A stretch of DNA of 64,000 nt from Eledone cirrhosa (taxonomy: Eukaryota): assembly GCA_964016885.1 (NCBI GenBank), contig OZ024740.1:69502001-69566000 (forward strand). Direction: 5' to 3'. The position numbers and the translations under genes are program-made. Below, one piece after another: positions 1 to 57,275 of this stretch. Numbering within the stretch: the first letter of the stretch is position 1; each line of letters begins with the position of its first letter. The notes under the pieces were generated by a model, which saw only the letters and a list, made by a program, of their open reading frames with translations, was not told the origin of the DNA and made no database searches.

Positions 1-15
1 AGAAAGCCAGACAGG

Positions 16-60
16 AATATTGGACTAGTTTCGATGTTGTTACATCTCATCAGCAATATT
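16..60 (-). ncRNA. Type I hammerhead ribozyme of the 463-bp unit (further - copies at 479-523, 942-986, 1405-1449, 1868-1912, 2331-2375)
   Basis: Minus strand reads AAUAUUG-CUGAUGA-GAUGU(AACA)ACAUC-GAAA-CUAG-UC^CAAUAUU: 7-bp stem I (extendable), intact core, 5-bp stem II, 1-bp stem III with palindromic CUAG loop, GUC cleavage triplet. Confidence 0.93.
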
Positions 61-2551
61 TACCTATTCCGGCCTCTCTAGAGAATCGTAAAAGCACATA
101 TCGTTATATGCTTTTTCTATGAAAATTAGTAGTGGGCAGACTAATTTGCATAGAGCGTGAGTACGTACCGGTTCAGCGGAGACGATAAAAACAAATAACG
201 AAACGAAATTGAATTTCGCTTCGTTTGTAACTCACTTTTGTATGACTGACGCTTAACCAATTAAGTTAAAAATGTACATCCACATATGTATACTGAAATA
301 TTAGTATGCATATGAATACACACACGTGTACATATGTAGATGTACCGAGTTTTTCACTGGACACTTTACTGTGAGTGTTCAGCTATTCTGTATGTAAACA
401 CACAGACAATCCGGTTTTTAGAGTCATACTGGTTTTCTAGGAAACACCTTTCCTCTATTCTCCAGAAAGCCAGACAGCAATATTGGACTAGTTTCGATGT
501 TGTTACATCTCATCAGCAATATTTACCTATTCCGGCCTCTCTAGAGAATCGTAAAAGCACATATCGTTATATGCTTTTTCTATGAAAATTAGTAGTGGGC
601 AGACTAATTTGCATAGAGCGTGAGTACGTACCGGTTCAGCGGAGACGATAAAAACAAATAACGAAACGAAATTAAATTTCGCTTCGTTTGTAACTCACTT
701 TTGTATGACTGACGCTTAAACAATTAAGTTAAAAATGTACATCCACATATGTATACTGAAATATTAGTATGCATATGAATACACACACGTGTACATATGT
801 AGATGTACCGAGTTTTTCACTGGACACTTTACTGTGAGTGTTCAGCTATTCTGTATGTAAACACACAGACAAACCGGTTTTTAGAGTCATACTGGTTTTC
901 GAGGAAACACCTTACCTCTATTCTCCAGAAAGCCAGACAGGAATATTGGACTAGTTTCGATGTTGTTACATCTCATCAGCAATATTTACCTATTCCGGCC
1001 TCTCTAGAGATTCGTAAAAGCACATATCGTTATATGCTTTTTCTATGAAAATTAGTAGTGGGCAGACTAATTTGCATAGAGCGTGAGTACGTACCGGTTC
1101 AGCGGAGAGGATAAAAACAAATAACGAAACGAAATTAAATTTCGCTTCGTTTGTAACTCACTTTTGTATGACTGACGCTTAAACAATTAAGTTAAAAATG
1201 TACATCCACATATGTATACTGAAATATTAGTATGCATATGAATACACACACGTGTACATATGTAGATGTACCGAGTTTTTCACTGGACACTTTACTGTGA
1301 GTGTTCAGCTATTCTGTATGTAAACACACAGACAAACCGGTTTTTAGAGTCATACTGGTTTTCGAGGAAACACCTTTCCTCTATTCTCCAGAAAGCCAGA
1401 CAGGTATATTGGACTAGTTTCGATGTTGTTACATCTCATCAGCAATATTTACCTATTCCGGCCTCTCTAGAGAATCGTAAAAGCACATATCGTTATATGC
1501 TTTTTCTATGAAAATTAGTAGTGGACAGACTAATTTGCATAGAGCGTGAGTACGTACCGGTTCAGCGGAGACGATAAAAACAAATAACGTAACGAAATTA
1601 AATTTCGCTTCGTTTGTAACTCACTTTTGTATGACTGACGCTTAAACAATTAAGTTAAAAATGTACATCCACATATGTATACTGAAATATTAGTATGCAT
1701 ATGAATACACACACGTGTACATATGTAGATGTACCGAGTTTTTCACTGGACACTTTACTGTGAGTGTTCAGCTATTCTGTATGTAAACACACAGACAAAC
1801 CGGTTTTTAGAGTCATACTGGTTTTCGAGGAAACACCTTACCTCTATTCTCCAGAAAGCCAGACAGGAATATTGGACTAGTTTCGATGTTGTTACATCTC
1901 ATCAGCAATATTTACCTATTCCGGCCTCTCTAGAGATTCGTAAAAGCACATATCGTTATATGCTTTTTCTATGAAAATTAGTAGTGGGCAGACTAATTTG
2001 CATAGAGCGTGAGTACGTACCGGTTCAGCGGAGAGGATAAAAACAAATAACGAAACGAAATTAAATTTCGCTTCGTTTGTAACTCACTTTTGTATGACTG
2101 ACGCTTAAACAATTAAGTTAAAAATGTACATCCACATATGTATACTGAAATATTAGTATGCATATGAATACACACACGTGTACATATGTAGATGTACCGA
2201 GTTTTTCACTGGACCCTTTACTGTGAGTGTTCAGCTATTCTGTATGTAAACACACAGACAAACCGGTTTTTAGAGTCATACTGGTTTTCGAGGAAACACC
2301 TTTCCTCTATTCTCCAGAACGCCAGACAGGAATATTGGACTAGTTTCGATGTTATAAAATCTCATCAGCAATATCTACCTATTCCGGCCTCTCTAGAGAA
2401 TCGTAAAAGCACATATCGTTATATGCTTTTTCTATGAAAATTAGTAGTGGGCAGACTAAGTTGCATAGAGCGTGAGTACGTACCGGTTCAGCGGAGACGA
2501 TAAAAACAAATAACGAAACGAAATTAAAATTCGCTTCGTTTGTAATAGGTA

Positions 2552-3522
2552 AATATTGCTAATGAGATGTAACAACATCGAAACTAGTTCAATATTCCTG
2601 TCTGGCTTTCTGGAGAATAGAGGAAAGGTGTTTCCTCGAAAACCAGTATGTCTCTAAAAACCTTTTTGTGTGTGTGTTTACATACAGAATAGCTGAACAC
2701 TCACAGTAAAGTGTCCAGTGAAAAACTCGGTACATCTACATATGTACACGTGTGTGTATTCATATGCATACTAATATTTCTGTATACATATGTGGATGTA
2801 CATTTTTAACTTAATTGTTTAAGCTTCAGTCATACAAAAGTGAGTTACAAACGAAGCGAAATTTAATTTCGTTTCGTTATTTGTTTTTATCGTCTCCGCT
2901 GAACCGGTACGTACTCACGCTCTATGCAAATTAGTCTGCCCACTACTAATTTTCATAGAAAAAGCATATAACGATATGTGCTTTTACGATTCTCTAGAGA
3001 GGCCGGAATAGGTAAATATTGCTGATGAGATTTAACAACATCGAAACTAGTCCAATATTCCTGTCTGGCTTTCTGGAGAATAGAGGAAAGGTGTTTCCTC
3101 GAAAACCAGTATGACTCTAAAAACCGGTTTGTCTGTGTGTTTACATACAGAATAGCTGAACACTCACAGTAAAGTGTCCAGTGAAAAACTCGCTACATCT
3201 ACATATGTACACGTGTGTGTATTCATATGCATACTAATATGTCAGAATACATATGTGGATGTACATTTTTAACTTAATTGTTTAAGCGTCAGTCATACAA
3301 AAGTGAGTTACAAACGAAGCGAAATTTAATTTCGTTTCGTTATTTGTTTTTATCGTCTCCGCTGAACCGGTACGTACTCACGCTCTATGCAAATTAGTCT
3401 GCCCACTACTAATTTTCATAGAAAAAGCATATAACGATATGTGCTTTTACGATTCTCTAGAGAGGCCGGAATAGGTAAATATTGCTGATGAGATGTAACA
3501 ACATCGAAACCAGTCCAATATT
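2552..3522 (+). ncRNA. Three + strand hammerhead copies in the inverted arm (2552-2596, 3015-3059, 3478-3522), each mutated
   Basis: Copy 1 has CUAAUGA and GUU. Copy 2 has a stem II mismatch (GAUUU). Copy 3 has loop CCAG instead of palindromic CUAG. Confidence 0.85.
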
Positions 3523-3765
3523 CCTGTCTGGCTTTCTGGAGAATAGAGGAAAGGTGTTTCCTCGAAAACCATTATGACTCTAAAAACCGGTGTCTGTGTG
3601 TTTACATACAGAATAGCTTAACACTCACAGTAAAGTGTCCAGTGAAAAACTCGGTACATCTACATATGTAAACGTGTGTGTATTCATATGCATACTATTA
3701 TGTCAGTATACATATGTGGATGTACATTTTTAACTTAATTATATATATATGTATATATATATATG

Positions 3766-3812
3766 GGAACCAGTAAGACCCCGACAGCTGAGCTCAAGCC
3801 GTTTCCACGGCT
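3766..3812 (-). mobile_element. Short fragment of HHR element family B in (TA)n
   Basis: gggaaccagtaagaccccgacagctgagctcaagccgtttc matches the family B copy at 56362-56470. Confidence 0.75.
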
Positions 3813-5785: not shown

Positions 5786-6230
5786 TACGATATTAAACAA
5801 ATGGAAACTATATTTATAAAACCATATTTATTTCATTATACATATTTCAGGGATACCATATTAAAAATATGGCATGCCTTCTTCAGATAAAATACAATAT
5901 ATAAGCAGTTTTATAAATAAATTTGACGTACCATAAATATTGATCAACTTCCATGTAAAAAGTTGATCTACTTCCATGGAAGTTGATCAATATTTAGGGT
6001 ACGTCAAATTTATTTATAAAACTGCTTATATATTGTATTTTATCTGAAGAAGGCATGCCATATTTTTAATATGGTATCCCTGAAATATGTATAATGAAAT
6101 AAATATGATTTTATAAATATAGTTTCCATTTGTTTAATATCGTATATCTACTCCAAAACTTGTTGGGTGCTTTATATCAGTTATAAAATATTTACTTTTT
6201 GTAACCCAACAATTTTAAATAAAACTTTTG
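5786..6230. mobile_element. Family C fold-back element in (TA)n with hammerheads at 5829-5894 (-) and 6036-6101 (+)
   Basis: UAUUUUAU-CUGAAGA-[long stem II ..GCCAUAUU/AAUAUGGU..]-GAA-AUAUGUAU-A^AUGAAAUA. Stem III is self-complementary with G-U pairs. Arms ~5786-5955 and ~5975-6146. Confidence 0.88.
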
Positions 6231-6719: not shown

Positions 6720-7613
6720 TATAAAGTATGTCCATAGAATCATTTGATAGGATATATACACCATCTCCTCTCTCAATCACCATAATCAACCAAACAAAAC
6801 CAATTAAACCAGGCTATAAGATTAAAAGGCACCTATGAAGAAATAATAGATAAATAAACGACACCCATCTACTCGCGATCAACACAGCCATAGAATATTT
6901 ACCCAACATTTCAATAGCACGTGGAATCGATTAAATATATCGTCAACCATACACAATTAGGTATACATTTAAAGTTAGAAGAAAAAATGTATATAAACAT
7001 ACGAAGATTACGTTTCTACCCATTGGGATTTCACTCGCGTTTGGAAATATCCCATCAAGGACAAGTTCATAAGCTTCGAATTCATCAGGAAACAAACTCA
7101 CTTGGACGAAGATTTTTCTTAAATGATCCCCGCCAGAAATGAATTCAAAATGGCTAAGAACTGTTGCGTGGCAGTGATCAAGTCGGAAAGAATGTGATTG
7201 GTGACTTACGGCGAGTGGACTGGTTGCTAGAAAGCGCAGCCTAATATTGCCTAAATTGCATCTCAACCTCATGGGAGATTATAAAATATAAAGATCTACA
7301 TATTCACAAACTAGACAAAGTCATGGATATATATATATATGTTTTTGGCAACCATTCACGATGTGGCTCAATGACGAATTAATTAATTAAATAACTAACA
7401 ATCAGAGCAATATACTATAATGTATGTCCATAGAATCATTTGATAAGATGTATACACCATCCCCTCTCCCAATCAGCATAATCAACCACACAAAAAAAAC
7501 AATCAAACCAGGCTATAAGATTAAAAGGCACCTATGAAGAAATAATAGATAAATAAACGACAGCCATCTATTCGCGATCAACAGCCATAGAATATTTACC
7601 CACCATTTCAATA
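6717..7613. mobile_element. Partial-tandem element (~696-bp unit with ~200-bp direct terminal repeats) in (TA)n
   Basis: 6717-6916 is repeated at 7413-7613. Only a degenerate HHR-like motif is present (CUGAUGA...GAACUUGUC, - strand 7060-7088). Confidence 0.65.
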
Positions 7614-7649
7614 TATATTATATACATATATACACATACATACACATAC

Positions 7650-7744
<95 letters not shown>

Positions 7745-7885
7745 TATATAAACACACACATACACATATATATATATATACACACACATATACACATATA
7801 CATACACATATATATATATACATATATATATATACATAAATATACACGTACATATACATATACATATATATATACATATATACAC

Positions 7886-7920
<35 letters not shown>

Positions 7921-7929
7921 TACACACAC

Positions 7930-7961
<32 letters not shown>

Positions 7962-8070
7962 GTACATATATATATATACATATACATACATATGTATATA
8001 TATATATATATATACATACACACAAACAATACATACATACATACATACATATATATACATATATATATAT

Positions 8071-8129
<59 letters not shown>

Positions 8130-8304
8130 AACACACAAACATGCCCATATGCAGGTACATGTGAACGCACGAACACACAGCGGTATCCATACAAACGAAC
8201 GGCCACTCATACAAATACATACAAACAAACATCTACTTATAAATAAACGCATATACACAGGCACAAAAACATTTCTAGAAGCAGAAAATGCAGATAAGTA
8301 AGAG

Positions 8305-9693
8305 GTACCTACATAAGAGAGTTTGTTCAGTAGCGGGCCCTTGGCGAATAAAATTTCGTAGCTCTCTGAGATACAAAGGTCGCAGCACTTGTGTCCTCCG
8401 ATGTATGAGCGCGCTCTCTGGAGTATTTTCCATTTAAGCGTGAAGGGGTGGATTTCCTTTTGAGGTCCCAAACATAGGAGGCGAGTGTTGTCTGATTTGA
8501 TTCGTCCGGTCTGCTGAAAGAGTGGGTATGGGCATACCACCCGGTCTTAAAGTTATTGGAAGTCATGCCGATGTAAGTCTTTTTGTTGTTGCAATCATCG
8601 GTGCCTGAGATGACATCGCATTTCTATACGATATCATTTGTCAGGCATTTGTTTTCAAGTGGGGAGGCTTCCTTATTTAGGCAATTACACAAGGCCCCAG
8701 TCCGAGGATTGGGTTCGGAGGTGTTTGGCTTATTTAATTTTTTAGAATTGTGATTGGCTATATTCCTAGCTAAGTTAGGTGTGGTGGAGTAGGAGAGTCT
8801 TATTGTGTTCTTATTAAAGATGGTGTAGTACCTATGTTGTATGGGGACGTCTGTGTTCAGCAAAGTGAAGAAAATCCTAGCTATAGGTGTAGAGACCTCT
8901 CTATTGAAGGGAGGGTTGTACCAGCTAATCTGCATATGCCTATTCCTCCTATGAAGACTTGCGGTGGTTTCTAGGTAGGTTATCTTTCTTTAAATCCGCT
9001 GCGGGCGAGGGCGTCATTGTAGTAGGAGGCACAGGCGTTAAAAATATCTTCATTGTCAGAGAGGCCAGAGATTCTAATAGAGACGCTTTTTACTAAGTTA
9101 TCAGTGATGTTTTGGGGGTGGTTAGAATTAACAATAATATATCTAAGGGACTCATTAGGTTTGTGGTACGGGTAATAGAAGGAAGTATCTAGGTCGAGAG
9201 TGACATTTAAAAAGTTGGTCCTAGTTATATTAGATTCTATAGTTATACTAAATCCTAGATTACGGAAGAACGAGCTTAAGTTTCTCCGAAACCCATCGGT
9301 GGTTCTGGGGTTAACCTTGTGCAGGTCGAAGAGGCTGTCGTCTCGGTATAAACCTCCGGTTAGGCCAGTAAAGAGGTTCTTCATGTGAAGTAAAATGTAC
9401 AGGCCCACAAGGTCGCTAATTTCAGCCGAGACACGCGCTCCCATGCTGACATCAAATGGGGTCTGAGACTTTTTGTTGAACGAGTATGATCCATCGTGGT
9501 ATGGGAAGCTCTTACGGGAATGGAGGATAACATCTTGCTCAGCATCGGCTATGGTGGTAAAATTCCTGACAAAGGTAATTGCGTCCTTCAGTAGGGGCTC
9601 CGAAATGGAAGCATAGTAGTTTTCTATGTTGAGTTGCAGGAAGCGAGTGTGGCCTTTCTCGGGTAATTCTTGGAACCAAGATATTGCCTCAGA
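8305..9693 (-). pseudogene. Penelope-like element RT + GIY-YIG endonuclease fragment (probably Naiad-type), with frameshifts and stops
   Basis: Motifs GLYRDD, FLNVTLDL, YPYHKPN..Y..VNSNHP, WYNPPF, CNC...[29 protein letters not shown]. Flanked by TA-rich tracts. Clade assignment is from motif recall only. Confidence 0.9.
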
Positions 9694-9694
9694 G

Positions 9695-9770
<76 letters not shown>

Positions 9771-10099
9771 TGAAGAGTTCATTCTACTGACATGGCTTTA
9801 AAAATGAGGCTTGTTTGCATAATTGCAAACGAATCGAATGTCATTATTAATATTCGAAAAACTCAGATTACATTTATTGTATTCAGCCATGTAGAGCGAA
9901 ACATTTTTTTTTATATATATATAAATATATATATATACATACATATATATATACATATATATAGAGAGATATAGATATAGATACATATATATATATATAC
10001 ATACTTATTTATATATGATATATATTTATCCCTATCGATCCGTCTTTGGATTTTAGTCTACAGATTTATTATTATTACATGCATACATATATATATACA

Positions 10100-12329: not shown

Positions 12330-13100
12330 GATCATTGTTTTGGGGGTCCGTATGGCATGGGTCCACCCAATCCACCTTCCCATAGGAGTCTTTTTTGCTG
12401 TTGAGGTTATGGTGGGGTGTCTACCTCATATGGGTCTACTGGGGAAGAAACGCCTAATGTCATGGTCTGTCTAGGTACACGGTGTCATAGGTAAGTCTAA
12501 ATAGGAGGCCCAGTTCATATGACTCGACGTCGCAGAACTCCACCTCACTCTCACTGATCATCTCCACACATTTTCCCACAGTAAAATCAATGTTAATGGA
12601 TGGGTATAGTGATACCACGTCCATAATGCCTATTATGCAGTTAGATAGGTTTTTGTTTTTGTTGCACTCATTGATTCTGCTGAGGAGGTCGTCTGTACTG
12701 TCACACATACATCTGGGGACATCTTCATTATGAGGCGTATAACCATTGAGAAGAAGTAGGAGATCCTGTAGTTGCTAGCGATATTGGCCCCGCATACAGG
12801 TCTTGTTGGTGGTCCTGTTGTCGGGTCGTCGACTGTCTTATGGTGTTTGCGGAGCACATACAAGGGCGGTATGTCATTGTTTGACGCCTGGAAGTTGTTG
12901 GCAGTGCGTCTGCTTGGCTTTAGGATGTCAGTCCACATCATCATGTGAACGTTGAGGATCTTCTCTCTCCCCTCATGTGTTTGTTGTGTAATTTCGCTCG
13001 TGCTGGTGAGGTGGGGTTGCAGAACCTTGATGTAGTTCGGCATGCTGTCTATCGACATCCTACCAGACTTATCTGTGGGTAGACACACTACCTCACCATC
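12330..13100 (-). pseudogene. Penelope-like element RT N-terminal fragment
   Basis: PTDKSG, IPPLYVLRKHHK, RPVCGA and MDVVSLYPSI motifs across a frameshift. Confidence 0.88.
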
Positions 13101-13371
13101 CATTGTGGGCTGCTTGAGGCTAACTAAGCCTTCTACAGGTTTCCTTCCAAGTTGTTGGAACTCTGGTCTGCTTTGCCTCTTAGTATATTTGTCTAATCTT
13201 ATTTCTAGCTATGGTGAACTGTGCCTCTCTCTAGTCATCTATTTGTTGTGGTATACAAACCCTTTTATTAAAGGGTAACCACGTTGGATAGATTTTATTC
13301 ATCTTATAATTTTTGTCAGCTGGGTTGAAGAATATTTTTTCTAAGGGGGTGTCATTATATCTATCGTCATA

Positions 13372-17682: not shown

Positions 17683-17902
17683 ATTAAAGCTGGTTTGTGG
17701 TTTGGTGCAATGAATGTTGTGTTCTGGTTTATATAGCATTTCAATAAGTTTCTCATTTATTCTGTAGTTAGCATGCAATTGATTCATGTTATACGATTAA
17801 GGTCAATCCTAATGGGTGTAGTATCTGGTGTATTTTTTATTGTATTTGTTCTATGGGTTGACCATAGAACAATGCAATCAACCCTCCCTCTTTCTTTCTC
17901 TC

Positions 17903-17980
<78 letters not shown>

Positions 17981-17997
17981 CATATATATATATATAT

Positions 17998-18195
17998 AAC
18001 GTAGGAATTGGGGTAAGGAACCAGATGGACCATAACGCACCAAAGTACTCAATACTTAGTGTAGTAGAGTGTGTAATAGGAACAAGTATGACCCCGACGG
18101 CAGAGTTCAAGCCGTTTCGACGGCTATTTCTGGACGAGTCATAAATAGCCGTCGAAACGGCTTGAGCTCTGCCGTCGGGGTCATACTTGTTCCTA
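17998..18195. mobile_element. Family B fold-back element carrying the 3' half of a hammerhead in both arms
   Basis: GUC-GAA-ACGGC(UUGAGCUCU)GCCGU-C^GGGGUC. Long left arm, short right arm, (TA)n on the left. Confidence 0.8.
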
Positions 18196-18218
18196 CATTT
18201 TCTTAGCATATATAAATA

Positions 18219-18482
18219 TATATGCTAAAAAAATGTAGAAAGTCTCAAACGTAGAAAAGTTGTACACGGCTTGGAAAATCGGTTAAAATACCACTATATA
18301 CAGGACATGTGGTTAGCTGCGGTTATAGAGATTCAAATGCTGTACCTCTGAAATTCAGTGTAAGATTTTGTGTTTCGGCTACTGGCCACCTTTTCAGTCT
18401 ATAAGGCTATTTTAAACAATTTTCTAACCTGTGTTTACAGGTATCTTCCTACGTTCGAGATTTTCTGCATTGCCTAAGAATA
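18219..18482. mobile_element. Degenerate MITE-like element
   Basis: Imperfect terminal inverted repeats aatgtagaaagtctcaaacgtag / ctacgttcgagattttctgcatt. Confidence 0.5.
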
Positions 18483-26389: not shown

Positions 26390-27945
26390 TTGTTATACTT
26401 GGGGAGGGTCATATTTGTGTAATATTGCCAGAATTAATAACAGAACACACTCACTGTTTGGTTGGTTTTCGCTTCTCGCTTCTGTGTCTTTTATATCGGT
26501 AATCTAACTTACTCGGTCCTCAATGTTGCCATTGACTGACCGACGGTCAAAAATAATACAGATACAATATAGACACAAACACATATATATAGTTTATCAT
26601 AAATCTTTCGTTGCACATCTGCAACATCGTCAGTGGTGTTATATCTTCCTCCTGTTGTACTGTATGTCTACGCCATTTTTATTCAGTCTGTCTATATATT
26701 TATTTATGTATTTGCTTGTTTGTTTATTTTATTTTGTCTTCTTTGCGCATGCGTTTGCGCGTGTGTATAGTGTTTTGTTGACTAGTGTGTGTTTATGTGC
26801 TTGTTGTTATTGTGCTTGTGTATGTATTTATTTATTTATTTATTTAATTTTATTTACTTATTTATACTTCTCTTAGGTCAGTGTTGTTTATTTGGGTGTT
26901 GTTGTTATTCCATTCATTCTTTCTGTTTAGCTTTGGTCTTCTAATTTCTATTTCACTGGCCTCTCTGATTTGCCTATCTGCTGGGTCATTTCTATGTTTA
27001 GATATTATTCTAATTTCTATGTTGTCTATGTTACCGTCATGTTGTTGTCTAGCATGTTCGTATAGAACTGACCCGTTTTTTCGTCCTTTTAGTTCCCCCC
27101 AGTGTTGGTCTATCCTTTCACCTATGCTACGAGCTGTCTCACCTATGTATGTTGTTGTCATGTTTCTGCAAGTACCCTCTGTACATCTTATGCTATAGAC
27201 TACGTTTCTAGTTTTACAGTTTATCCGGGGGTTCACCTTACATATGATACATTTCCTATTAGTACAGTAGATTTTCTTAAAAGGGTAGGTTTTGCTGATC
27301 AGGGATTTTATGGTGGTTCCTGGCTTTTCTACCACCTTTATTTTTAAGTGGGTCTTTCTCAGGGCCTTTCTACACTGGTTGGCTAATTTCCCTCCAGGGG
27401 TGGCGTCCACAAACATGACACTCTGATATCTCTGGTTGTCGTACCATGATGTGGCCTTCCCTATCTTATGTCTAGCCCTATCTAAGCTATTCCATGATTT
27501 GCTCCTGTATAGTGGGCAAATTCCTTTCATGTCCAGTTCTATGAGGGTCTTATACTTTTCCATGGCTCCTTCGTATACTCTGACTCTGTCTCTTTGGTTG
27601 TAGCCAGAGATCTGCATGCGGTTGATGAAGTGTTGGATGTGTCTTTCCATTTCTGCTGGGTCGCACATGCGGGACACATTCTTCATCACTCGTACCAAAT
27701 CTGCGATTAGAATATTAAACTTAGCACTACTGGAAATTGCTGAGTTTTTGAGTATCAGGTATTTGGAGGCCATGGGTTTAGCATAGTGTGAGTGGAGAAT
27801 TTGGGCTCTCTCGTCTATAGTGTTAATCCAGAGTTCTGTGTCTAATACAGGTAGTCTATTGTTAGGGTGTTTGGAAGGGGAGTCGATAGTTACAGTTATA
27901 CTCTGGTGTATGGAATTAGCTATCTGCTGGATGCTTTCTATCGTG
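26390..27945 (-). mobile_element. Penelope-like element 3' half: RT thumb + Cys linker + GIY-YIG, then HHR-bearing pLTR, (TA)n on both sides
   Basis: Open frame to stop at 26862 with [58 protein letters not shown]. Confidence 0.93.
26595..26638 (-). ncRNA. Hammerhead in the PLE 3' pLTR (slightly decayed)
   Basis: CACCA-CUGACGA-U-GUUGCA(GAUG)UGCAAC-GAAA-GAUU-UA^UGAUA, about 225 nt after the GIY-YIG stop. Stem I is weak. Confidence 0.75.
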
Positions 27946-28013
<68 letters not shown>

Positions 28014-28018
28014 CTGTA

Positions 28019-28082
<64 letters not shown>

Positions 28083-28211
28083 TGAATTTGTAGGTTAGGT
28101 TTGCATTAGATATGAATTAATTGTCATGGTATTGTTGTTACTATTGTTTTTACTATTGTTGTTTCGCCCTATATCAATCCTGATAAAACAGTACTGTTAT
28201 CAAAGGTTGTA

Positions 28212-46441: not shown

Positions 46442-49400
46442 GTTCTCTTTATTAACCACAAGGGTTTACATAAAGTAGACATTAAGGACAGTACAGGACA
46501 ATACAGGAGGGTACAAATGGGCATTTCTGCGTGTAAAAAAAACAGAGGATGTAATAAAATAACAAAGAAAGATTCCCCAATAGGGGGGAAACTTCCGAGG
46601 GACCATTGTGGAGAAAGCTCATTAAAAGACAGCAGTGGCCCTGACCACCAGGGCAAGTGACCTCTCCCAGTTTTCCACCTTTAATTTACAGACACATACT
46701 CAGAGTAGGCCCATTCACTCGGGCCATACTTGCCTCTCTCACCCATCTTTCAACAAAATGCTGGAAAGAGAGCACTTCCCTCTCTACCCTGATTTTCCTT
46801 TTCAAATGAAATTTGAAAAAGTTAATCAGGGCATCACCGAAGAGGTAAGTGCTCGTCTTCAGCCCTTTCAAACGTGTCCACAATACTATCTCTTTCGCCA
46901 TGGCCACCAGACAGATAAAAACTGCCTGCCCTTCCTGGCTAAAGGAAGAGGGCGGGGCAATCATCACGATGGACTCAGCTGATAGCTGGATCCATCCTAC
47001 ACGTGACAGCAGGTGTTCGACATAAACCCACAAGTCAGCAATGCTCGGACACTGGACGAGTGCGTGCAAGACGGTTTCGTCGCCCTGCGCGCATCTCGGA
47101 CATGCCCGGGTGACGGCACCTCCATGCCTGTAGAGTTTATCCCGAACTGGCAAAGCTCCCCGGTAGCACTGCCAGGCCAGGGATTTCTGGAAGTTCTCCA
47201 TAGGCCCCGGCCCGAAAGTCCTTCCGAAGAGATTGGCTAGTTGATTTTCGTCGACGCCTAGAGTTTCTCCAAGTACGTCGTCGCTCTTCCCCTCCACTAA
47301 TCCTCTATAGAACGCCAAGGTGGAGTTTCCACCGATCACATTGCCCGATTGGTCGAGGGCTGTGAGCGCCTGAAAACATTCCAGTCTCCAAGCGCTCCCT
47401 CTCGGTCTTCGCTTGACCCAGGACTGCAGCTCCGTCAAGGAGACGAGCTGGGGAAAGACGTGTCTACCAAACGGCGACCACACCTGATCACCGTCGAGGA
47501 AGAGGTGGAGATGTCGTAGCCTGAGCGCGTGTCTGCGCATCATCAGCCACGGCATGCCCAGCCCTCCACGTAACGGGTGATGACAGCAGATGGATCGCCT
47601 GACCATCGGAGCGCGTCCCTTCCACAAAAAGCGAAAGAGCAAACGCTCCAGCGCAGTCAGGCGGGGCTTAGGACAAGATACGACGGTCAGGCGGTAGTAG
47701 ATGACGGACGCAATGTACGCGTTAGCCACCTCCGCTCGACATTTCAGGGATAGCTTCCTCTCGGCCCATTTCTGAGTGAGAGAAGCCACCCTGCTCGTCA
47801 CCTCGTCCCAGTTTTTGTCCGTCTGGAGGTCCGGACCGAACCAGACCCCTAGCAATTTAACCGTCCGTCCGTCCAGCGCCCGACGACGCTGTTGGACGGC
47901 ATGGACCTGCCTCTCCAGGTGCCGAGCTGCAGGCCCACTGACATTTCCTGGTTGATCATTGCTCCTGTCACCGCTTCGTATTCTCTTAGTGTAGTGCCGA
48001 TCGCCTCGACGTGTTTGGCGTTCGACACCACTACGGTGACATCGTCCGCATATGCTGACACGGATCTTCCGCATCCTAGTTCGAGCGGGACCCCCTCAAC
48101 GTCTCCAGTTTGTGCAGTAATGGCTTGAGAGTCAATACGTACAAGAGGGACGAGAGGGGACATCCTTGGCGGACCGAGCGCATGATGTTGAACGGTTCCG
48201 AAAGGTGACCGTTCACTCTCACCACAGAGCAGATGTCGCTGTGCATCGTAGCGATCCAGCCTCTGAAGACGGGCCCAAAGCCAGCCGCCCTCAGGACTGC
48301 CGCTAGGTAACGATGGTCGACCCTATCGAAGGCTTTCGACTGATCTAAATTTATCAAAGACCCACCCGTGCCAGGTTCCCTAGCTACCCTCTCTACGATG
48401 TATCGCATGAGGTGGAGGTTGTGGTGGATGGATCTGTCGGGAATGGCGCATGTCTGCGCCACTCCCACCAGACCACCAACGATAAGCGCCAACCTCTTTG
48501 CTAGCACCTTGGCCAAAATCTTGAACTCTGTGTTTAGCAGAGTTATGGGCCAAAAATTATGTATGTTATCCTCCTTGTTCGGATCCTTTCTCAGCAGCGC
48601 CGCCGCACCTCGGCTCACAGAGCTGGGAATTCTCCCGTTCTGTTGCCAGTTGCAGTAGACGTCCGCCAAGAGGCCTCCGAACAAGTCTGGCATTTGTACG
48701 TAAAGATCATAGGGCAGACCATCCAAACCAGGCGATTTACCCCTTGTGCAGCCAGTCATTGCCTCCCGTACTTCAGCGGCTGTTATCGGCTTTTCGCAAC
48801 ACTCCACCTCAGTGGCCGAGAGCCGCGGCAGTCCGTCGAGGTAGACACTAAAGTCCATCCCTCGATCCGGCCCGCCACTGCCTCCGAACAGTTGAGCGAA
48901 GTGTCGCTGAAAAGCTTCACACATTTTCCCGGGATCGAGTAGCAATGCGCCCGTCGTGGTCCACCAAAGACCGGATCGTGGCTTTGTTGCTACGACGCGC
49001 CTCCGCCACTCGGGCCCATTGAACGGCTTTCGTCCCCTTGTGTCTGAGAGCACGCACCCTAGCTCTGACAACGCAGCCTTCGTGCTTTGCATTGAAGAAT
49101 TGGTCAAGGGCCAATGTCGCCGCAAGTACGTCGGTCGCGATGCCTTTGCGAAGCGCCTCATCTAATTTTTTAACTAATTCTCCCTCTGCTCTATTTTTCT
49201 CTATTGCTAAAGCCTTACTAAACCTAATGGACTCTATTCTAATTGCTCTTTTCAGAGCAAACCACCACTTGTTGTTGACGATGGCCCCGGTCAACGCCCG
49301 CTTAACTAGTTCGCTAATCCGGTCTCTGTAAGCCTTGCGCGCTGGTAAGGACGCGTTTAGCTTCCAGTAGCCGGGTCCTAGTCTATGAAGCCTATCTAAG

Positions 49401-52318
49401 TCAAGCACACAGATCACGAATTTGTGGTCCGTGTAGCTGACTATCTTGAATTGTGGACAGCCTATGCTAGACGTATCTATTTCCCTACAAAATATTCTAT
49501 CTAGATATGATTTGGATGACCTAATGCGATTTGTCCAAGTCCACATTGGTACATTCGGGAAATCCAATCGGTACTTGTCAGACAGTTCAAAACGCCTGAG
49601 CAGGCTGGTCAGACTCTTGCACCCTCCTTCCCTATCCACTAATCCCACACAATCCCAGTGTGCATCTAAGATCCCGTTCCAGTCGCCCACTAACACTAAA
49701 GAGCGGGACGTTTCAAGAAAGGTCTCCAGACGCCGGAAGAAATTAGGCCGCCCTGCTCCTGTCGGGATATAGACGGCCACTAACCTGAAAGCTTGCCCAA
49801 CTCCGCTGGTCACGTCCAGCACCACAAACTCACCTTCTGGGTCCATGAAGATGGCCCGTATGGCAAGATCAAAACCTCTCCATAAAAAGCACAGCAACTC
49901 CTCCCTCCGATCCCGGACGGCTGGAAGATGCGTACACATCGTAGCCGCCGATGATCGGTGCGAAGGCCCGTGCTTCGGAGATTCTGGTCTCGCTGATGGC
50001 CACTACATCTATGTTTAGTGACCTGAGGTCGTTGAGCAGGTGGCCCTACTTCCATGACGACCCCAAGCCACGCGCATTTATGCTGCCTATTCTGAGTGAA
50101 GTCATGTTGAAATGGAGTGGAAAAGATGGGAAATACCACTTACCTTACTTCTCATAGAGGAAGGACGGTTTTTCCATCCTTTTCACTGCTTGTGGCCTCC
50201 TCAGGAAGGATGTCCTTATAAATCCTCCTGGAGAGTGCTTGTCGGAAGTCTCCGATGTCTTTGGGGAATTTTTGTTTTAGTGTTATGTACGTTTTCTATG
50301 TGATGCGAGTGATTTGTATGTGTGGAGGTGGTGTGAATTTTTGGGTTGTTGTGTAGTATTTTTCTGTGATGCTGGTGTTGTGTTGGATGTAGTGTAATAA
50401 TTGGTTGTTGTTCAAATGTAATGCTGTGTAGTGTGTATCGTTTTGATTGTTTCGTTTTGTTTACGTTTGTTGTGGGTTTGTTTCTGTTTCGCATTTTGGT
50501 GACTTTTGTGGTGTAGGTGATGTTGGTGTTGGAGTTAATGATGGTGATGGTGTTGGTGTTTGGGGTGATGGGGTTGGTGATGCTGGTGTGGATGGTGGCA
50601 TATCTGTCCTAACTTCTTTGTTTGTTAATTTATTTGTTTCCCTCTGTATTTTGTTTTTGGAGGGGGAAGGAAAAAAATTTTTTTTTTTTTTTTCCTGATA
50701 CCCTTTCCCACTCCTCATTGTCACAATCTGTCTCCAGTTCTGATAGGCCGGGGAGTGGAAAATCCTCCACAGGCGTTAGTTTTGGTTGTGCCGTGGTGGA
50801 TGGTGTAGGCGCTGGTGCTAGTTCTGAAGCGTTGGGTGGTGGTGGTGTTGGTTTTACTGGTGGTGGTGGTGTTTGTTTTGCTACTGTTGCTGGGGTTGTT
50901 GCTGTTATAGTTGCTTCTGTTGTTGCTGCTACAGTTGTTGCTGCCATCTCTGCTACTGGTGGTGTTGATGGTTTAGTCACTGGGGTGGGTAGGAGAGGTG
51001 GCCTCAACCTTTTAGCCTGAGGGACAGAAAGCCCTTAGGTGGGTTCCTTCACCACAAAAGACACACCTAGGCCTTTTGCCCTCGACAATTACGCTGAGGT
51101 GACTGCCGTCAGTGAGGTCTATTATCTCTGGGATCTCCTCAATGCTTTTTTGTTCCGCTTGGATCAGGAGCTCCATCCCAGATCCGGACCAGTTCTCCTG
51201 CTTTTCTTTTGCTATTGCTATTATCTTGGTGTTGGCTTCGATACCGGCGAGGACGGCCGCTATTAGCCAGGGAATTTCGATAGCCGGTGGAACGTGGGTC
51301 ACCCTGTTTTACGAGTCGGTGGCCACAATAGCTTGGGACGAGTGTGAAGCCGTCACTTCTTAATGGGGCCATGGAGTGTTCTCTAGCCTCCTCTGGTGTT
51401 TCAAAGAACACGTCCACGGTTCCATACTTCTGCCCACGTCTGATGTGGGTTTTTCTTGCCCACACATGTCCCAAAGCTTTTTGGATTTGGGACTCGGATG
51501 CCCGTTCCACTCGGCGCGATTTTACATTAATTGTTCGATACGACACGGTGCATAGGCGCCCGATACTTCATTTTATTAGGTGGGAGGTGAGGCTGACCCT
51601 GTACCGATCTTTCTTTACCATTTTTTGGCATTTTCTAATTCCTCCTGAGTTACCGTAAATGCTTCGCACTGTTTTGCTACTCTGGCAAAACTCAGGGTGG
51701 TTTTTTTAATGTCATTGTTGCTGTTGTTGTTATCGTTATTTTTGTTATTATTCATTTTAGTTTCAGTTGTGGTGGTGGTGACGTCAGTGGTGTTCGGTGT
51801 GGAAGAGTCCAATTTGGTTGAAAACATTTCGACATCACGAGTTGATTTATTTTTTCCTTTTTTTTCTGTTGTCGCGGTGGTGGTGGTGGGGGGGGTTGTC
51901 GCGGTGGTGGTGGTGGTGGCAGTTTTAACACCTGCAGTCATTGGTAATGGCGGGATATGAATGTCTGCCTGAGACAAATTTAAAATATTGCTACTGACTA
52001 AATGTTTAGTGTTGGAAAACGTAGTAATATTTACAATGGTGGTGTCGGTGTGAGGTGTTAGATTATGAGGAAGGCTGTCAGCTTCGTGTGGCTGTGAGAC
52101 TTCCATGCTTTTTTTTTCAAAGAAATTTTTTTGATAATTATAAATGTTTAAATTTTGGGCACAAGGCCCCAATCTTTTTGGGTGTCCTTTTCGGAAAACA
52201 ATGTATGTGCGCTTATAAACAGTTAACAATAAAATTTTCCATAAATGGCAATTTTTAACAAACGTAAATAACAAACCTTTGCGGAGCTCACGATGATACG
52301 ATTTACTACGTAGGTCGC

Positions 52319-56256: not shown

Positions 56257-56321
56257 TATATATATGCATGCTACTGGACGTCTGTATACATATATGTATG
56301 TACGTATACATACATACTTAC

Positions 56322-56361
<40 letters not shown>

Positions 56362-56364
<3 letters not shown>

Positions 56365-56551
56365 AACCAGTAAGACCCCGACAGCTGAGCTAATTCTGGA
56401 CGGCTAATTCTGGAGTCCAGAATTAGCCGTCGAAACGGCTTGAGCTCAGCTGTCGGGGTCTTACTGGTTCCTATTACCCACTCTACTACCTCAAGTATTG
56501 AGTACTTTGGTGCGTTATGGTCCACCTGGTTCCTTACCACATTTCCTTCGT

Positions 56552-56552
<1 letters not shown>
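56362..56552. mobile_element. Family B fold-back element (short left arm, long right arm) in (TA)n
   Basis: gacggctaattctgga-g-tccagaattagccgtc-gaaacggc..gtc^ggggtc, with gctaattctgga duplicated at the junction. Confidence 0.85.
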
Positions 56553-56579
<27 letters not shown>

Positions 56580-56582
<3 letters not shown>

Positions 56583-57275
56583 ATAATAATAAATTTCAAG
56601 ACTAAAATCCAAAGAGGGCTCGATATGGATAAATATATATCAAATATATAAGAACCGTAGAGCAAATATTTATTAAAATAACAGATTAAAGTTTAAGCAA
56701 AAACTCGCTGCTTTCACCCTTAACGGGATCTTCTGAAACTAACAAAGTCAATCTGTAAACGCAGAAGTGGATATTTTAAAAAAACGTTGCAACCGGAGGA
56801 AGACAGGAAGACGATACTTTGGTTCGTCGAAACGTTCGCTATGCAAATAGGTAATGGTATAAATAAACGGAAATAAAAGACCATGTGACCTCTGCGCCGC
56901 TGAGGCCCTGGAAATACTCTACGCCACAGACCACATCTTAAACAAAAAATCTGAGGCAATTTCGGCTTGTAAACATAAATTGCACAAAACTTTCCTGTAT
57001 TACAGCCCCACGGTATACCCTAATGGATAGTACGATCTTTACGTGGATATTTTACGTCTTGATGTGGGAGCTAAGTATGTGTTTTATTTATACCGTTACT
57101 TATTTGCATAGCGAACGTTTCCACGAACCAAAGTATCGTCTTCCTGTCTTCCTCCGGTTGTAACGTTTTTTGAAATATCCACTTCTGCGTTTACAGATTG
57201 ACTTTGTTAGTTTCAGAAGATCCCGTTAAGGGGGAAAGCAGCGATTCTTTGCTTAAACTTTAATCTGTTATTTTA

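Follow-up and report, generated by a model that had tools for sequence, protein, structure and literature searches.

The insertions of Penelope-like elements (PLEs) are described as containing an inverted, 5'-truncated copy with a tail of 30-40 bp at one end (PMC8557442, PMC3846280) and as being biased towards (TA)n targets (PMC8557442). A purified PLE protein, which is predicted to form dimers, cuts both strands of AT-rich DNA and extends them from two internal sites of the RNA, and the tail of these elements is the sequence between both priming sites (PMC11167929). A mobilization of animal retrozymes by PLEs has so far been argued from the co-occurrence of both elements and from the similarity to pseudo-LTRs (pLTRs) (PMC7229834, 10.64898/2026.07.22.740005). 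Here we describe a 463-bp repeat containing a hammerhead ribozyme (HHR), which occupies positions 1-3740 of a stretch of 64,000 nucleotides from Eledone cirrhosa (assembly GCA_964016885.1, contig OZ024740.1; G000:C1:69502001-69566000 in our coordinates of the 3.0 Gb genome), referred to as the window. Our data support the view that this array is a single head-to-head insertion of a likely non-autonomous retrozyme, which was likely copied by a PLE from RNA into (AT)n by way of two fixed internal sites, a reading to which we assign a probability of about 0.85. Its most informative feature, the inverted layout of two arms with two fixed ends, was overlooked in a preliminary description of the locus.

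A hammerhead repeat organized in two opposing arms

Tandem Repeats Finder resolves positions 1-3740 into two arrays with a period of 463 bp and an identity of 97-98% (1-2545 and 2544-3740), which are reverse complements of each other and which both face outward from a junction at 2544/2545. Positions within the unit are numbered from the first base 3' of the hammerhead cleavage site as base 1. The components of the insertion are as follows:

1-2545, minus strand: minus arm, 5.5 units in the window, with the whole arm measuring 7,279 bp
2544-3740, plus strand: plus arm of 2.6 units, which starts at unit base 418 and runs out at the short (S) end, unit base 227
2544-2545, no strand: head-to-head junction, where two 5'-truncated arms meet at unit bases 256 and 418 and overlap by 2 nt
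3053-3515, plus strand: reference unit from cleavage site to cleavage site, corresponding to the predicted 463-nt monomer
3280-3353, plus strand: internal copy of the 'tail' segment, unit bases 228-301, located between the two fixed end positions
3741-3764, no strand: (AT)n flank at the S end

The minus arm continues for 4,734 bp to the left of the window up to G000:C1:69497267, where it terminates in (AT)n with a long (L) end at unit base 301, its outermost unit being devoid of bases 98-270. The complete insertion encompasses 16 + 3 = 19 HHRs and is bordered by (AT)n on both sides. Within the window, cleavage sites are found at positions 23, 486, 949, 1412, 1875 and 2338 of the minus strand and at positions 2589, 3052 and 3515 of the plus strand, with a spacing of 463 inside each arm and of 251 bp between the nearest sites of both arms. 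Of the at least nine HHR copies that had originally been described as lying exactly 463 nt apart, nine are thus present in 1-3740 with the expected period, but instead of forming a single run, six of them reside on the minus and three on the plus strand, with the inversion at 2544/2545. The seven full units of the window differ from each other in 2-12 of 463 bases.

Loci of the family share a footprint of two fixed ends

With 39 of 930 candidates being scored, the unit was matched in at least 269 places spread over at least 10 contigs, with identities of 96-100% among the matches listed. The genome contains its exact 31-nt core 1,633 times (compared to no occurrence of a control with reversed pattern), so that the family does not represent a local satellite. 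Grouping of the first 100 cores gives 28 loci, and by rough extrapolation from this number, there would be several hundred loci in total. Our analysis was carried out on 61 loci, comprising 38 from the best-scoring list and 23 additional ones from 28 that were collected by order of position. Across the family, the unit length varies between 463 and 470 bp, and its members combine the traits of retrozymes, namely tandem units of a few hundred bp with one type I HHR each, low GC content and a dispersed, multimeric occurrence. The family is a young, dispersed and non-coding hammerhead repeat, which supports its initial placement among the retrozymes, and the dispersed multimeric loci, whose counting had been proposed as a check, do exist. 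The term 'satellite' that was used on the same occasion is poorly suited for such a dispersed family, although it does apply to one locus of a 470-bp subtype (89% identical), which has expanded to more than 22 kb (L159, L110, L160; G000:C1:95645001-95667000). In this unbroken arrangement with all units on one strand, of which neither end was reached, we see either a retrozyme that has expanded to a satellite or a source locus.

The relative orientation of arms is strongly constrained: a head-to-head layout is found in 47 of the 61 loci and a tail-to-tail layout in none, and the main chain of the other 14 has a single arm. Nearly all outer ends belong to two classes, with S ends located at unit bases 226-233 and L ends at 296-302. 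Among the 47 two-armed loci, 41 contain one S and one L end and the remaining six have one irregular end, with no case of two S or two L ends, and neither end class is repeated in any of the 41 classified loci. In the position-ordered sample alone, this pairing is found in 16 of 19 cases. The longer arm is tied to neither end class (the L arm being longer in 19 of 41 loci). The 94 inner ends are evenly spread over the unit and do not pile up at the cleavage site, the two arms overlap by 0-4 nt at the junction in 28 of the 47 head-to-head loci and the median length of an arm is 668 bp. Flanks consisting of (AT)n border all of 40 left ends and 35 of the 40 right ends, and the connection of the L end to (AT)n is also contained in contigs of a public DNA run. 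Because an impure repeat pattern is common to both flanks in 6 of 40 loci, compared to 1 of 240 cross-locus controls, the microsatellite probably predates the insertion.

At two loci (L021:5267-5393 and L056:6002-6032), a 31-bp piece encompassing unit bases 271-301 is set apart at the L end, accompanied by a jump to base 97 in one locus and by an extra inverted copy in the other, which possibly reflects abortive priming.

Penelope-like elements in the same genome

The genome harbors intact PLE-like open reading frames (ORFs) of 753-758 and of 1,217 amino acids, both with many near-identical copies, which were assigned to PLEs by look-alikes in Atlas (with the domains reverse transcriptase (RT), GIY-YIG and HTH_animal) and by motifs recognized by eye. 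In the RT/GIY-YIG family of 1,217 residues, where 12 loci were examined, all nine two-armed loci carry one short and one long end. The S/L footprint in 41 of 47 head-to-head loci of the retrozyme resembles that of this intact PLE family and lends support to the proposal, already part of the preliminary description, that insertion proceeds by PLE machinery. The tails of four PLE-type families range from 45 to 96 nt, an interval that includes the about 70 nt found in the retrozyme. The array itself does not contain an ORF combining RT and GIY-YIG and is as such not an autonomous PLE. A partner was not found around the two PLE families of 753-758 and 1,217 residues, and these two, together with four other HHR-bearing end families, were discarded as candidates as they share the footprint without a clear match in sequence.

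Both PLE-like families are represented in the window. Fragments of the 1,217-residue family, which is very young with 99% identical copies and which contains an asparagine-rich insert, are located at 26417-28094 and 12633-13208. The tail of this family is the start of its own ORF and exists in classes of 45 and 59 nt. A decayed copy of the 753-758-residue family with a 71-nt tail, of which many intact copies exist elsewhere, is found at 7608-9783.

Structure and predicted activity of the hammerhead

The motif is a type I hammerhead made up of proximal stem I (7 bp), CUGAUGA, stem II (5 bp), GAAA, a palindromic CUAG and GUC. The nine copies of the window are:

23-53, minus strand: HHR core of the family form, with the outer stem clipped by the edge of the window
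486-516, minus strand: HHR core of the family form
949-979, minus strand: HHR core of the family form
1412-1442, minus strand: HHR with intact core and a single distal mismatch in stem I
1875-1905, minus strand: HHR core of the family form
2338-2368, minus strand: HHR with intact core and a mismatch in stem II
2559-2589, plus strand: HHR with damaged core (CUAAUGA, triplet GUU), likely inactive
3022-3052, plus strand: HHR with intact core and a mismatch in stem II
3485-3515, plus strand: HHR with intact core and loss of the stem III palindrome (CCAG); its extended stem I spans 3452-3544

Only four of the nine copies agree with the family form throughout the core, proximal stem I and stems II and III. 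The catalytic core (CUGANGA / GAAA / NUH) is kept in eight copies, and the previous notion of an intact core throughout is correct except for the copy at 2559 with its CUAAUGA and GUU. Beyond a UA bulge, stem I lengthens to 29 bp, in agreement with an earlier estimate of about 30 bp, and this extended stem folds on the HHR strand alone (z -5.5 compared to -1.5 on the opposite strand). The Rfam model HH9 matches three of three copies in the region 400-1500 with E-values of 8e-6 to 4e-5, which are under the gathering score, and at the gathering score Rfam recognizes nothing in the whole window.

When folded as a circle, the reference unit reaches an energy of -152.6 kcal/mol, with a z of -9.3 on the HHR strand and of -4.9 on the other strand. 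The active fold of the monomer is at +0.2 kcal/mol compared to -7.2 kcal/mol for an alternative fold, and the palindromic hexamer of stem III is able to pair with itself in a duplex of -4.8 kcal/mol. Hammerheads with a helix III of 1-2 bp and a palindromic loop were reported to be weak as monomer and active as dimer (PMC4209133), and since stem III of the described family contains only 1-2 bp with a palindromic loop, its cleavage is predicted to proceed mainly as dimer. Both self-cleavage and RNA circles are predictions.

The fold can also be compared to a sister family of 420-432 bp (e.g. L153:1336-3236, L141-L158, G000:C1) with 11,409 exact hammerhead cores, which is identical in 258 of 478 columns with the core being kept, and whose ends are homologous to the S and L positions. 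In the HHR stems, 91% of cells are paired and compensatory changes are found relative to the sister family, with 6 of 18 pairs changed on both sides. The sister family contains a U-U mismatch at the base of stem II.

Coding potential, octamer and transcripts

Two further features of the unit were inspected:

340-585, plus strand: 81-residue ORF, antisense to the HHR strand, incidental, with five copies in the window
3387-3394, plus strand: octamer ATGCAAAT at unit base 335

Besides copies of the 81-residue ORF, the region 1-3740 does not contain any ORF of at least 50 residues starting with ATG, and the 81-residue ORF has no match in Pfam. Among 186 units, only 25 contain it at full length, and almost all of these belong to the 463 subtype, which agrees with its previous characterization as antisense and probably incidental. 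As a gene it was rejected, with its length changing to 50 residues in the 466-bp and to 68 residues in the 465-bp subtype. Of 186 units, 181 retain the octamer, as do 21 of 26 sites of the sister family, and it is a possible internal promoter element. An octamer is also a constituent of the newt satellite 2 promoter.

With respect to transcription, we turned to public sequencing runs. Run X6 joins two ferritin exons over a GT..AG intron and, due to the presence of this spliced joint, is RNA of the organism, while run X1 behaves as DNA. X6 covers 26 of 30 bins of the repeat and includes one 162-nt contig of a related subtype, which crosses the cleavage site and carries a compensatory change in stem II. 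This run shows the presence of relatives of the family in RNA only, as its contigs give neither strand, ends nor topology. Runs X4 and X5, which carry labels of other organisms, were dismissed as evidence for the range of the family, as each provides two contigs with unrelated loose ends and no coverage of ferritin exons.

Proposed mechanism and alternative explanations

The described features can be combined into a mechanism in which a multimer would initially be transcribed by read-through, possibly from an internal promoter that includes the octamer. The hammerhead would then cut mainly as a dimer of two units, while being quiet in the monomer, and monomers would be circularized by a host ligase. 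As suggested by the footprint and by published work in vitro, the enzyme would cut both strands of (AT)n, with the resulting ends priming on the same RNA at about bases 227 and 301. Each complementary DNA (cDNA) would extend past the cleavage site over a number of units that varies, with repeated passage around a monomer circle as the simplest route. Both arms would stop at scattered points and be joined head-to-head, in accordance with the observed pattern of inner ends and the overlap of 0-4 nt in most loci. Later local duplications, which are suggested by the sharing of variants, would have extended the minus arm of the window. At slightly less than even odds, we regard the arrays as a record of the PLE reaction in vivo, in which an enzyme dimer bound to one circular RNA would use one site for each cut end, with both arms rolling until the cDNAs meet.

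The nature of the template can be approached from the distribution of variants. A cut linear monomer is excluded because the arms run through the cleavage site, where inner ends are also not piled up. Among the variants of 40 complete loci, 100 show fixation in both arms and over two or more unit ranks, nine of them being unique to one locus among those examined, whereas 182 testable variants are not mirrored between arms. The 9, 6 and 7 full units of L026, L122 and L127, respectively, hardly differ within each locus, and each of these three loci carries a unique fixed variant. Such uniformity is predicted by a single monomer circle and equally by a uniform source array that was not sampled. 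In the minus arm of the window, variants recur with a period of six units in one block and with a period of two in another, the latter being limited to four units. None of these variants is contained in the two full units of the plus arm, nearly all are absent from other loci, and this distribution suggests that the periods likely reflect later local duplications of six and two units. For the same reasons, we have rejected a dimer of 926 nt, which had been raised in the preliminary description, as the template of this array, since the alternating variants are found in only four units of one arm and resemble a later local duplication. Classical twin priming of L1, where one outer end is expected to be fixed, was rejected as well, since both outer ends are fixed in the described family. 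Taken together, a monomer circle is in our view somewhat favored as template, with most loci being uniform over their two arms, while an uncut linear multimer is a serious candidate of less than even probability, and both kinds of template may be used.

Several observations weigh against the proposed mechanism. The retrozyme tail of about 70 nt exceeds the published 30-40 bp. Pfam and PDB did not provide any informative match for the PLE-like proteins, which is why their label rests on the Atlas look-alikes and the motifs recognized by eye, and a profile search of 1.0 Mb of DNA did not reveal a coding PLE that shares the tail or the hammerhead. The observed number of doubly changed pairs was also attained in 48 of 500 shuffles, and the covariation derives from essentially two lineages. 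When tested within the family, selection on the hammerhead did not reach significance (p 0.52 and 0.14), and just one of nine dimers of frog retrozymes was found to cleave in vitro (10.64898/2026.07.22.740005). In X6, the depth on the family is low beside an ordinary intronic repeat. With respect to the template, two loci (L059 and L114) contain three alleles that are shared by the outermost units of both arms and absent from inner units. Both arms of locus L105 (1771-8073), a head-to-head chimera, contain a PLE end, (AT)n and a retrozyme portion that starts near base 280 and passes through an uncut hammerhead, and the locus is possibly a single insertion primed at the L site of the retrozyme. 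Finally, unprocessed RNA serves as the predominant substrate of the studied PLE (PMC11167929).

The latter findings would fit a process that involves the same element and PLE enzyme, where the template would be an uncut linear read-through multimer. In this case circles would not be involved, and long arrays would originate from long sources and local duplication. Besides the chimeric locus with its uncut hammerhead and the alleles shared by outermost units, this explanation is supported by the sharing of variants with periods of 6, 5, 4 and 2 within one arm at several loci, by the array of more than 22 kb, by the finding that HHR cleavage is dispensable in vitro (PMC11167929), and by the proposal of local amplification in a preprint (10.64898/2026.07.22.740005). 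It is less easily reconciled with the uniformity of the three youngest loci over both arms and with the scarcity of mirror-shared alleles, of which three were confirmed compared to 100 that are fixed (three of initially six mirror-shared variants, all from L116, had disappeared upon realignment and were dropped). Also, with a median arm of just 668 bp, random 5' truncation would be expected to shrink arrays in every generation unless they were re-extended. We assign a less than even probability to a mechanism without circles.

In another scenario, the units would be mere pLTR remnants of 5'-truncated copies of autonomous PLEs and not constitute an independent family. The footprint is indeed like that of autonomous PLEs in the genome and homology to pLTRs was published for frog retrozymes (10.64898/2026.07.22.740005), but in none of 61 loci does a unit run directly into a PLE ORF, the passage from unit to unit takes place up to 16 times per arm and the profile search of 1.0 Mb did not yield any coding relative, which renders this scenario improbable. 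Finally, DNA recombination could have dispersed an ordinary satellite, in which the inversion would be a local accident or an assembly artefact. This explanation would account for the tandem structure, the local duplications and the one very long array, but is refuted, unless the loci were misassembled, by the two fixed ends and their strict S/L pairing at 41 independent loci, and is rendered most improbable also by scattered inner ends, (AT)n targets and the public DNA-run contigs joining the L end to (AT)n.

Other repeats in the window and elsewhere

Adjoining the S end, positions 3765-3810 belong to an abundant short repeat with hammerhead-like words in unusual order, of which longer copies are located near 17784-18224 and 56271-56639. 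Hammerhead-like motifs of other families are found in the window at 5886, 6044, 37172, 37284, 57652 and 62748, including two head-to-head pairs (5886/6044 and 37172/37284), the first of which has one short and one long end. Several of these tails open with a similar ACTC...GAGT hairpin, as judged by eye. An unrelated 310-bp hammerhead repeat at L023:5600-8900 is also arranged head-to-head (3 + 8 cores seen) and ends in (AT)n, with its core resembling that of the 753-758-residue PLE family. The minus strand of the window contains, at 46686-51567, a non-LTR retrotransposon with frameshifts, whose ORFs are endonuclease-like and RT (RVT_1, E 1.8e-16).

Comparison with known systems

The class of the element is itself already known. 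With metazoan non-LTR retrozymes, as they are described in two studies (PMC7229834, 10.64898/2026.07.22.740005), the family shares non-coding tandem units with one type I hammerhead each and a GC content below 45%, a predicted circle with strong self-pairing, an organization ranging from dimers to large multimers and the presence of PLEs in the same genome. Its unit of 463-470 nt is longer than the 170-400 nt reported in one study (PMC7229834) and falls inside the 51-972 bp of the other (10.64898/2026.07.22.740005). RNA circles, which were demonstrated for these elements, are predicted in the present case, where the distinguishing feature is the head-to-head footprint with two fixed ends. The main text of PMC7229834 does not contain the term 'inverted', and the preprint 10.64898/2026.07.22.740005 contains neither 'head-to-head' nor 'tail'. 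In a search whose scope excluded most subscription papers and both supplements, we found no paper that describes the tail and inversion footprint of PLEs on retrozyme multimers.

In its mode of insertion, the family resembles endonuclease-containing PLEs (PMC8557442, PMC3846280, PMC11167929), with which it has in common the inverted 5'-truncated arm, the tail at one end only, targets that are AT-rich or (TA)n, priming from two internal sites and a repeat that contains a hammerhead. It differs by the lack of an ORF, by both arms being multimers of a short unit and by its tail of about 70 nt compared to 30-40. Moreover, the use of one site per arm is strict, whereas the PLE studied in vitro did not show a difference between strands in the start site (PMC11167929). 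The hammerhead itself is built similarly to those of newt satellite 2 and axolotl retrozymes, with a short stem III, a palindromic loop and predicted dimer-dependent cleavage (PMC7229834, PMC4209133), a likeness in build, with activity and transcripts having been shown for the amphibian elements only. A dependence on PLEs and multicopy insertions were also described for non-autonomous Chlamys elements such as MRC1, whose copies are arranged head-to-tail (PMC8557442). Their 3' sequence is common to them and a known autonomous partner, and their clade is reported to be devoid of canonical hammerheads, in contrast to the hammerhead-bearing family described in this study, for which the searches described above did not yield a partner.

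If the arrays were indeed to record the rolling of the enzyme on a circle in vivo, they would provide direct structural evidence that animal retrozymes are moved by PLE machinery in the form of circles, along with a small, defined substrate for addressing the head-to-head insertion of PLEs. The RNA of 463 nt makes both the choice between a circle and an uncut multimer as template and the origin of head-to-head PLE insertions amenable to experiment. To the known systems, the family adds a counted footprint of enzyme ends on multimeric arms, and its strict rule of one site per arm extends the two-site result obtained in vitro.

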